Shown here: positions 15,716 through 16,592 of the stretch, one piece after another
How the letters are laid out: the number at the start of each line of letters is the position of its first letter
Position numbering within the stretch: position 1 is the stretch's first letter
Source: Escherichia coli
GTDB taxonomy: Bacteria; Pseudomonadota; Gammaproteobacteria; Enterobacterales; Enterobacteriaceae
NCBI RefSeq assembly: GCF_003334385.1
Contig: NZ_QOWN01000011.1
DNA: 64,000 nt
Direction: 5' to 3' (one strand)
Notes under the pieces: model-generated
Told to the model about the DNA's origin: nothing
Seen by the model: the letters and a program-made list of their open reading frames with translations, nothing else
Databases searched by the model: none
Position numbers and translations under genes: made by a program

Positions 15716-16510
15716 ATGGATCTGTTGTACCGGGTAAAAACGCTTTGGGCCGCGCTGCGCGGTAATCATTACACCTGGCCTGCCATCGATATCACCCTCC
15801 CCGGCAATCGCCATTTTCATCTGATTGGCAGTATTCATATGGGTAGCCACGATATGGCTCCCCTGCCCACCCGTTTGCTCAAAAAGCTCAAAAACGCCGA
15901 TGCGCTGATCGTCGAGGCGGATGTTTCCACCAGCGATACGCCTTTTGCTAATTTGCCTGCCTGCGAGGCGCTGGAAGAGCGCATTAGCGAGGAGCAACTC
16001 CAAAACCTGCAGCACATTAGCCAGGAGATGGGCATTTCTCCCTCACTCTTTTCTACCCAACCGCTGTGGCAAATCGCGATGGTTCTTCAGGCGACGCAGG
16101 CACAAAAACTGGGGCTGCGGGCAGAATACGGTATCGATTACCAGCTATTGCAGGCGGCGAAGCAACAACATAAACCCGTGATTGAACTGGAAGGGGCTGA
16201 AAACCAGATTGCCATGTTGCTCCAGCTCCCTGACAAAGGACTGGCGCTGCTGGACGATACGCTGACCCACTGGCATACCAACGCACGGTTGCTGCAACAA
16301 ATGATGAGCTGGTGGCTGAATGCACCGCCGCAAAATAATGATATAACGCTGCCCAATACGTTCAGTCAGTCGCTGTACGATGTGCTGATGCATCAGCGAA
16401 ATCTCGCCTGGCGGGATAAATTACGCGCCATGCCGCCGGGGCGATATGTGGTCGCGGTCGGTGCACTACACCTGTATGGAGAAGGGAATTTGCCGCAAAT
16501 GTTGCGCTAA
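15716..16510 (+). CDS. ybaP: TraB/GumN-family protein, 264 aa
   Basis: 264-aa ORF with ribosome-binding site AAGGGAGG upstream; sequence recognised as YbaP. Confidence 0.85.
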   Translation: MDLLYRVKTLWAALRGNHYTWPAIDITLPGNRHFHLIGSIHMGSHDMAPLPTRLLKKLKNADALIVEADVSTSDTPFANLPACEALEERISEEQLQNLQHISQEMGISPSLFSTQPLWQIAMVLQATQAQKLGLRAEYGIDYQLLQAAKQQHKPVIELEGAENQIAMLLQLPDKGLALLDDTLTHWHTNARLLQQMMSWWLNAPPQNNDITLPNTFSQSLYDVLMHQRNLAWRDKLRAMPPGRYVVAVGALHLYGEGNLPQMLR

Positions 16511-16592
16511 AAAAATGGCCAATATCGCTATTGGCCCGTCAAAGAGGAATTTCATTTTTTTATTATTATGCCGTCACTTTAAGCGACGGTGT
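16509..16592 (-). ncRNA. chiX: ChiX (MicM/SroB) Hfq-dependent small RNA, 84 nt
   Basis: Minus-strand sequence ACACCGTCGCTTAAAGTGACGGCATAATAATAAAAAAATGAAATTCCTCTTTGACGGGCCAATAGCGATATTGGCCATTTTTTT; terminator hairpin plus U7 tract; matches ChiX as I recall it. Confidence 0.85.

Follow-up and report, generated by a model that had tools for sequence, protein, structure and literature searches.

The chiX small RNA gene of Escherichia coli and its tail-to-tail junction with ybaP

The chiX gene and its surroundings

The locus analysed here lies in a window of 64,000 nucleotides of an Escherichia coli contig (NZ_QOWN01000011.1, assembly GCF_003334385.1) and is composed of ybaP, which codes for a TraB/GumN family protein, the small RNA gene chiX on the opposite strand, and ybaK, which codes for a Cys-tRNA(Pro) deacylase (Table 1). 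The order ybaK <- chiX -> <- ybaP was recovered from the open reading frames and the annotation, agrees with the orientation given in the literature, and corresponds to a conserved ybaK-micM-ybaP arrangement that has been reported (PMC4355480). The minus-strand sequence from 16592 down to 16509 is ACACCGUCGCUUAAAGUGACGGCAUAAUAAUAAAAAAAUGAAAUUCCUCUUUGACGGGCCAAUAGCGAUAUUGGCCAUUUUUUU, and it is identical in 84 of 84 positions to MG1655 b4585, which the curated record places at 507204..507287 (+) as "small regulatory RNA ChiX", flanked in the RefSeq annotation by ybaK at 506603..507082 (-) and ybaP at 507286..508080 (-). The window is the reverse complement of the K-12 region (the K-12 coordinate is 523796 minus the window position), and in the surrounding 4 kb a single mismatch to MG1655 was found, at window position 18115 in ushA. 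SroB, RybC, MicM and ChiX are synonyms for one RNA (PMC3384567); as SroB it was described as an 84-nt RNA encoded between ybaK and ybaP, with Salmonella cDNAs that extend from the start site to the terminator (PMC2515195).

Table 1. Features of the ybaP-chiX-ybaK region in window coordinates.
Feature	Position	Strand	Basis and remarks
ybaP (TraB/GumN family protein)	15716..16510	+	ORF list, RefSeq; convergent with chiX; stop TAA 16508-16510
Rho-dependent termination region, peak	16328 (K-12 507468 +)	-	PMC7815308 supplementary file 2; antisense to ybaP
chiX small RNA	16509..16592	-	RF00368, MG1655 identity, published Term-seq 3' end, published 84-nt length
U7 tail	16509..16515	-	terminator U-tract, Hfq proximal-face site according to the literature; last two U complement AA of the ybaP TAA
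Intrinsic terminator hairpin, GGCCAAUA-GCGA-UAUUGGCC	16517..16536	-	terminator scan, -11.0 kcal/mol
Target-pairing seed, nt 45-58, UCCUCUUUGACGGG	16535..16548	-	complementarity to chiP and chbB-chbC
A/U-rich single-stranded linker, nt 23-44	16549..16570	-	sequence reading; putative Hfq distal-face site
5' stem-loop, ChiX nt 4-22	16571..16589	-	MFE and centroid folds agree
chiX promoter -10, GACAAT	16599..16604	-	promoter scan; ends 6 nt before the annotated 5' end 16592
chiX promoter -35, TTGGCA	16622..16627	-	promoter scan; consensus match only
ybaK (Cys-tRNA(Pro) deacylase)	16714..17193	+	ORF list, RefSeq; divergent from chiX, 121-bp spacer

The preliminary description had assigned this interval to ChiX on the minus strand, with the same coordinates and a length of 84 nt, and had proposed a covariance-model search as a check. 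When positions 12000-21000 were scanned with all Rfam families, RF00368 (sroB) matched with 82.1 bits, far over its gathering threshold of 44 (E = 2.5e-11), spanning model positions 1-83 of 83 and exactly 16509-16592 (-), and this match was again above the gathering threshold in a scan of the whole window; together with the MG1655 annotation, this result upholds the assignment in all its parts. The RNA folds with a minimum free energy of -24.1 kcal/mol and a z-score of -3.88, and an 84-nt element with such a z-score and with covariation in its terminator stem is not a chance feature. REP palindromes do occur nearby, at 14931-15211, but the interval is almost certainly not a non-expressed relic or a generic REP-like palindrome instead of a functional small RNA gene: the covariance-model match is full-length and far over gathering, the chiX promoter, seed and terminator are all intact, the sequence is identical to that of an experimentally studied gene, and the chiX 3' end is among the strongest in its neighbourhood of a published Term-seq table. 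The relic or REP-like palindrome was rejected because published expression data exist for the identical sequence. ChiX at this locus is thus already known and ordinary, and it had been correctly located; the account given here is based on its identity, anatomy, target complementarity, conservation and published 3' end.

Upstream of the RNA, the promoter scan identified a sigma-70-type promoter, TTGGCA-17-GACAAT, with 9 of 12 consensus matches (16627..16599, minus strand). GACAAT is found at the same distance in most of the Enterobacteriaceae homologues of alignment A1, among the matches listed; TTGGCA was read from the E. coli sequence, the alignment beginning a few bases upstream of the 5' end of the RNA. 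Inside the linker, ChiX nt 26-37 read as the AAN repeats AAU AAU AAA AAA. The terminator hairpin GGCCAATAGCGATATTGGCC has 8 pairs (ChiX nt 57-64 with 69-76) around a 4-nt loop, and A and U7 come directly after it (ATTTTTTT); a hairpin and U-tract on the chiX strand had been described before, and the terminator scan found them there. chiX is transcribed leftwards from its promoter and ends at a canonical intrinsic terminator, formed by this 8-bp GC-clamped hairpin and its U7.

A 10-nt perfect inverted repeat is also present, between 16508-16517 and 16553-16562 (TAAAAAAATG / CATTTTTTTA), and in the minimum free energy fold the A-run of the Hfq-binding AAN tract (nt 31-40) is paired with the 3' C-A-U7 tail of ChiX. 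In other Escherichia representatives (L005, L036, L108, L113) AAAAATATG is found instead, and the full 10-nt complementarity is not conserved.

chiX had also been said to be invisible to an ORF track, and this is borne out by the E. coli RefSeq records H1-H27 (nearly all annotated by PGAP), which show only ybaP or ybaK here and no chiX feature, among the matches listed; the curated MG1655 record NC_000913.3 does annotate it. ORF-based tracks miss chiX, since the pipeline-annotated records show ybaP and ybaK only. ChiX is a textbook small RNA, and as a discovery its presence here matters little.

Other structured elements were found in the window. REP-type palindromes that match the naRNA4 family (RF02564) occur on both strands: a cluster at 14931-15211 comprises two complete copies and a partial one, and a further copy lies at 22272-22349. 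The 14931-15211 cluster also contains two published orphan Term-seq 3' ends on the minus strand, one at K-12 508673 (window 15123) and the other at K-12 508771 (window 15025). The DnaX ribosomal frameshifting element (RF00382) lies at 30376-30440 (-), with 96.8 bits, and the bacterial small SRP RNA (ffs, RF00169) at 47244-47340 (-), with 68.1 bits.

Seed, targets and Hfq binding

The chiP and chb genes lie outside the window, and complementarity to them was computed against the MG1655 sequence. In the chiP leader, the longest perfect complement is CGUCAAAGAGGA, 12 nt that face ChiX nt 45-56 (UCCUCUUUGACG); it lies in the 5' UTR and covers the Shine-Dalgarno sequence, which is placed 8 nt before the AUG. 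The chbB-chbC spacer contains another 12-nt perfect complement, CCCGUCAAAGAG, which faces ChiX nt 47-58 and is flanked by a second helix with ChiX nt 38-44. The stretch that had been proposed earlier as the seed, CCUCUUUGACGGG, corresponds to ChiX nt 46-58 (window 16547..16535); it is essentially the union of the chiP and chbBC sites, so that the proposal was essentially right, and the terminator stem begins with the last two G of this stretch. Complementarity of the seed to the chiP Shine-Dalgarno sequence and to the chbB-chbC spacer, as expected of ChiX, was thus found. These sites were taken from the longest perfect complement and the exposed region of the RNA, which replaced a full-length RNAduplex calculation between ChiX and the chiP leader that had returned an unrealistic 72-nt interaction unfolding both hairpins. 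Within the window, seed-complementary sites were no more frequent than by chance, with six matches at up to 2 mismatches where 4.3 were expected, and the sole exact match was chiX itself.

Compensatory mutations have been reported as proof of the ChiX-chiP pairing, according to the work cited in PMC7815308. ChiX pairing raises Rho-dependent termination in chiP, and two RNA sponges act on ChiX, the chbBC spacer and ChiZ, a fragment of the chiP leader (PMC7815308). In the regulatory circuit reported in the literature, the single-stranded seed (nt 45-58) pairs with the Shine-Dalgarno sequence of chiP (ybfM) mRNA, which blocks translation and promotes termination by Rho inside chiP. Once the chb operon is induced by chitosugars, the same seed is bound by the chbB-chbC spacer, which leads to ChiX decay, and ChiZ sponges this seed as well.

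ChiX has been classified as a class II small RNA, with four AAN motifs needed to compete for Hfq; these motifs bind the distal face of Hfq and the poly-U tail its proximal face (PMC7987339). In Salmonella, SroB was enriched 56.7-fold by co-immunoprecipitation with Hfq and was among the three most abundant Hfq-bound small RNAs (PMC2515195). ChiX is also reported to be constitutively expressed (PMC4355480). The RNA encoded here contains both sequence elements of the class, a Rho-independent terminator with a U7 tail and an internal AAN tract, and Hfq binding as reported in the literature would take place through the tail on the proximal face and the upstream AAN repeats on the distal face.

The chiX-ybaP junction across Enterobacterales

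The two convergent genes overlap by exactly 2 nt, 16509-16510, where the complement of the last two U of ChiX forms the AA of the ybaP TAA (16508-16510). RefSeq agrees, with chiX ending at 507287 and ybaP starting at 507286, and the overlap is visible already in the MG1655 annotation. The terminator as a whole had been placed on top of the ybaP stop codon; this is true of the U-tract, which overlaps it with its last two U, but not of the hairpin, which begins 6 nt beyond it. Because of the tail-to-tail overlap, ChiX reads have been mislabelled as ybaP 3' UTR in at least one pipeline. The authors of PMC10954441 treated the RIL-seq category 'ybaP.EST3UTR' as ChiX.

A 122-nt segment that includes the promoter and the gene is present once each in 5423 of 5426 complete E. 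coli genomes, in 5410 of them with at least 99% identity. An exact-pattern scan with AAATTCCTCTTTGACNGGCC in one genome per species returned at least 120 loci, all of them from Enterobacterales, among the matches listed, except for one chance match: this was a Lindowbacteria MAG (L061), which has no terminator at the pattern and was rejected. Alignment A1 was built from 107 distinct homologues, among the matches listed, and is not usable for the conservation of the seed because the search pattern fixed both the seed and GGCC. Across these 107 homologues, pairing in the terminator stem amounts to 99.3% and 3 of its pairs show compensatory changes (24 cells), a value that none of 500 shuffles reached, and the 5' hairpin retains at least 5 pairs in 106 of them, with a sequence that is barely alignable (all among the matches listed).

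The convergent ybaP gene was located at each locus by tblastn, followed by a walk to its stop codon, and was identified in 116 loci among the matches listed, to which all the counts that follow refer. The same 2-nt overlap, with TTTTTTTA read as TAA, was found in 87 of the 116, which carry 32 genus-level labels that include Escherichia, Salmonella, Klebsiella, Citrobacter, Enterobacter, Serratia, Yersinia, Rahnella, Mixta and Winslowiella, and in which YbaP is 54-98% identical to the E. coli protein. Four loci, all from Pantoea, have a 1-nt overlap (TGA), and in five, from Phytobacter, Kosakonia and relatives, ybaP extends into chiX. The genes are separated by a gap of 0-40 nt in seven loci and of more than 40 nt in twelve (mostly Pantoea, Erwinia and Buttiauxella), and in the remaining one, from Proteus, ybaP lies elsewhere, a displacement reported before in P. 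mirabilis (PMC4355480).

In the five run-on loci (L027, L042, L049, L067, L095) a G follows the chiX U-tail and the usual TAA is lost; in four of them ybaP ends 5 codons later, at a TAA inside the terminator stem, and in Phytobacter massiliensis the ORF is 87 nt longer and crosses the whole of chiX.

The junction stays fixed while the codons immediately before the ybaP stop vary freely. On the simplest reading the junction is frozen, because an indel would be harmful to the Hfq-binding U-tail or else to the reading frame of YbaP, and this need not mean that the two genes share a function. The recurrence of the 2-nt overlap between stop codon and U-tail is a small addition to what was known of ChiX, and indicates that this tail-to-tail packing is old and widespread.

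Transcript ends and the direction of termination

A discrete transcript from the minus strand had been predicted for this interval, and it is supported by the published cDNA mapping of the 84-nt SroB and by a published MG1655 Term-seq 3' end at 507287(+), which corresponds to window position 16509. This 3' end was recovered in three of three growth conditions, with mean read counts of 445,279, 552,306 and 955,394, and the study counts it as the primary end of chiX, in antisense orientation to ybaP. Downstream of it, the Rho-dependent termination region with its peak at 507468(+) was reported with a Rho score of 3.7 (p = 4e-10) and with downstream/upstream reads of 22/1492 without bicyclomycin and 115/2100 with it (PMC7815308). 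From their position and strand, these reads probably represent chiX read-through that runs antisense into ybaP, which suggests that the intrinsic terminator lets through no more than a few percent and that what passes it is stopped by Rho; the small read-through fraction appears to be stopped about 180 nt into antisense ybaP.

The preliminary description had further proposed that one palindrome can serve as terminator for both of the convergent genes. The palindrome does fold on both strands, with -11.0 kcal/mol in the chiX direction and -10.1 kcal/mol in the ybaP direction, and no other terminator-like site lies between the ybaP stop and the hairpin. The flanks differ, however: the tail on the chiX strand (minus), ATTTTTTTAGCGCAA, contains 7 T in its first 8 positions and reaches a d'Aubenton-Carafa-type T-score of 2.82, whereas the tail on the ybaP strand (plus), CGTCAAAGAGGAATT, contains 1 T and reaches 0.33, so that U-rich tracts are not present on both strands. 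The ybaP-strand flank that follows the hairpin, CGUCAAAG, with 1 U in 8, is the complement of the conserved seed, and therefore it cannot become a U-tract in any species without destroying ChiX function. The terminator scan calls the minus strand only and no plus-strand terminator at the hairpin, and in the region 5070xx-5072xx the curated Term-seq tables (Adams et al.) list only 507287(+) and no ybaP-strand 3' end, ybaP being possibly weakly expressed; none of ybaP, ybaK and chiX is mentioned in the SMRT-Cappable-seq or TERMITe supplements. As intrinsic termination, the proposal is not supported by these data. A broader version, in which the palindrome also ends ybaP transcripts as a collision pause site against chiX traffic, takes support from the very high transcription of chiX (Term-seq counts of up to 955,394) and from a report that bidirectional terminators between convergent E. 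coli genes are unlike intrinsic ones, with the hairpin serving as a pause site at which head-on polymerases terminate each other (bioRxiv 10.1101/2022.10.23.513370). Taken in either form, intrinsic or collisional, bidirectional termination at this palindrome is judged unlikely. The hairpin is probably an intrinsic terminator in the chiX direction only, a unidirectionality deduced from the two tails and the mapped ends, in which low ybaP expression may hide a 3' end. With a probability of about 0.93, the interval is chiX, a known Hfq-dependent class II small RNA gene of Enterobacterales, with a terminator that is intrinsic in the chiX direction only.

If the hairpin does not end ybaP transcripts, transcription of ybaP could pass through chiX into ybaK, giving a co-transcript, a perfect complement of ChiX and interference between the opposed promoters. 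The order and orientation of the three genes are kept in nearly all the sampled species, and in 96 of the 116 loci among the matches listed the end of the ybaP ORF falls within the chiX U-tail or past it, which leaves ybaP with no 3' UTR of its own. There is no canonical plus-strand terminator between the ybaP stop and 16666, and before ybaK the plus strand offers a single candidate, a weak 5-bp hairpin at 16667-16680. Every ybaP transcript would have to enter chiX antisense, because its stop codon is built from the U-tail in most of the sampled Enterobacterales and ybaP has no terminator of its own. Against continuation into ybaK, the published supplements and tables that were searched gave no ybaP-strand transcript, polymerases coming head-on from the strong chiX promoter should allow little read-through, and the 121-bp spacer before ybaK could contain a ybaK promoter, for which the scan gave no plus-strand match. 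Such a co-transcript is accordingly regarded as quite improbable. It is very doubtful that ybaP read-through RNA or polymerase collisions act as a cis regulator of ChiX or that, in reverse, Rho-terminated chiX read-through tunes ybaP; if true, the chbBC and ChiZ sponges would be joined by an anti-ChiX RNA of perfect complementarity or by a switch based on transcriptional interference. Since the tail-to-tail packing is old and widespread, the locus offers a clean natural case for studying how an mRNA ends when the one hairpin downstream of it has no U-tract in its direction.

Two further observations concern the plus strand of this region and its neighbour. The weak terminator-like site at 16667-16695 (+) is composed of a 5-bp stem (CAGGC/GCTTG, -4.1 kcal/mol) followed by CTTCGTTTTTTTGTT, some 20 nt before the ybaK start codon; it could attenuate ybaP read-through, or be due to chance. 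A second convergent pair with a common palindrome is formed by ybaK, which ends at 17193, and ushA, which ends at 17230: within 17194-17230, the palindrome at 17199-17222 has a 10-bp stem of about -19 kcal/mol on either strand. The published Term-seq 3' end of ushA, at K-12 506602 (window 17194), is one base from the ybaK stop and 5 nt after the hairpin, which has no U-tract. This pair is a better candidate than chiX and ybaP for a shared or non-canonical terminator.

Compared with bidirectional intrinsic terminators, in which the hairpin is flanked by an A-tract and a U-tract, the chiX hairpin is likewise a palindrome common to a convergent pair, with A7 upstream on the ybaP strand. It differs from them in that the far side of the hairpin on the ybaP strand carries the seed complement, CGUCAAAG, in place of a U-tract, and in that a 3' end is mapped on one strand only. 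With the RNA known as ChiX, MicM, SroB or RybC (RF00368, b4585) it shares all 84 of 84 nucleotides, the position, the promoter, the 5' hairpin, the AAN linker, the seed and the terminator, and the 2-nt overlap with ybaP is the same as in K-12, from whose ChiX no difference was found. Class II small RNAs such as ChiX and MgrR are abundant and stable, their activity is set by RNA sponges and not by the promoter, and both combine a U-rich 3' tail with an internal (AAN)n tract that serves the Hfq distal face; ChiX is the type example of this class, and the gene described here conforms to it without difference.
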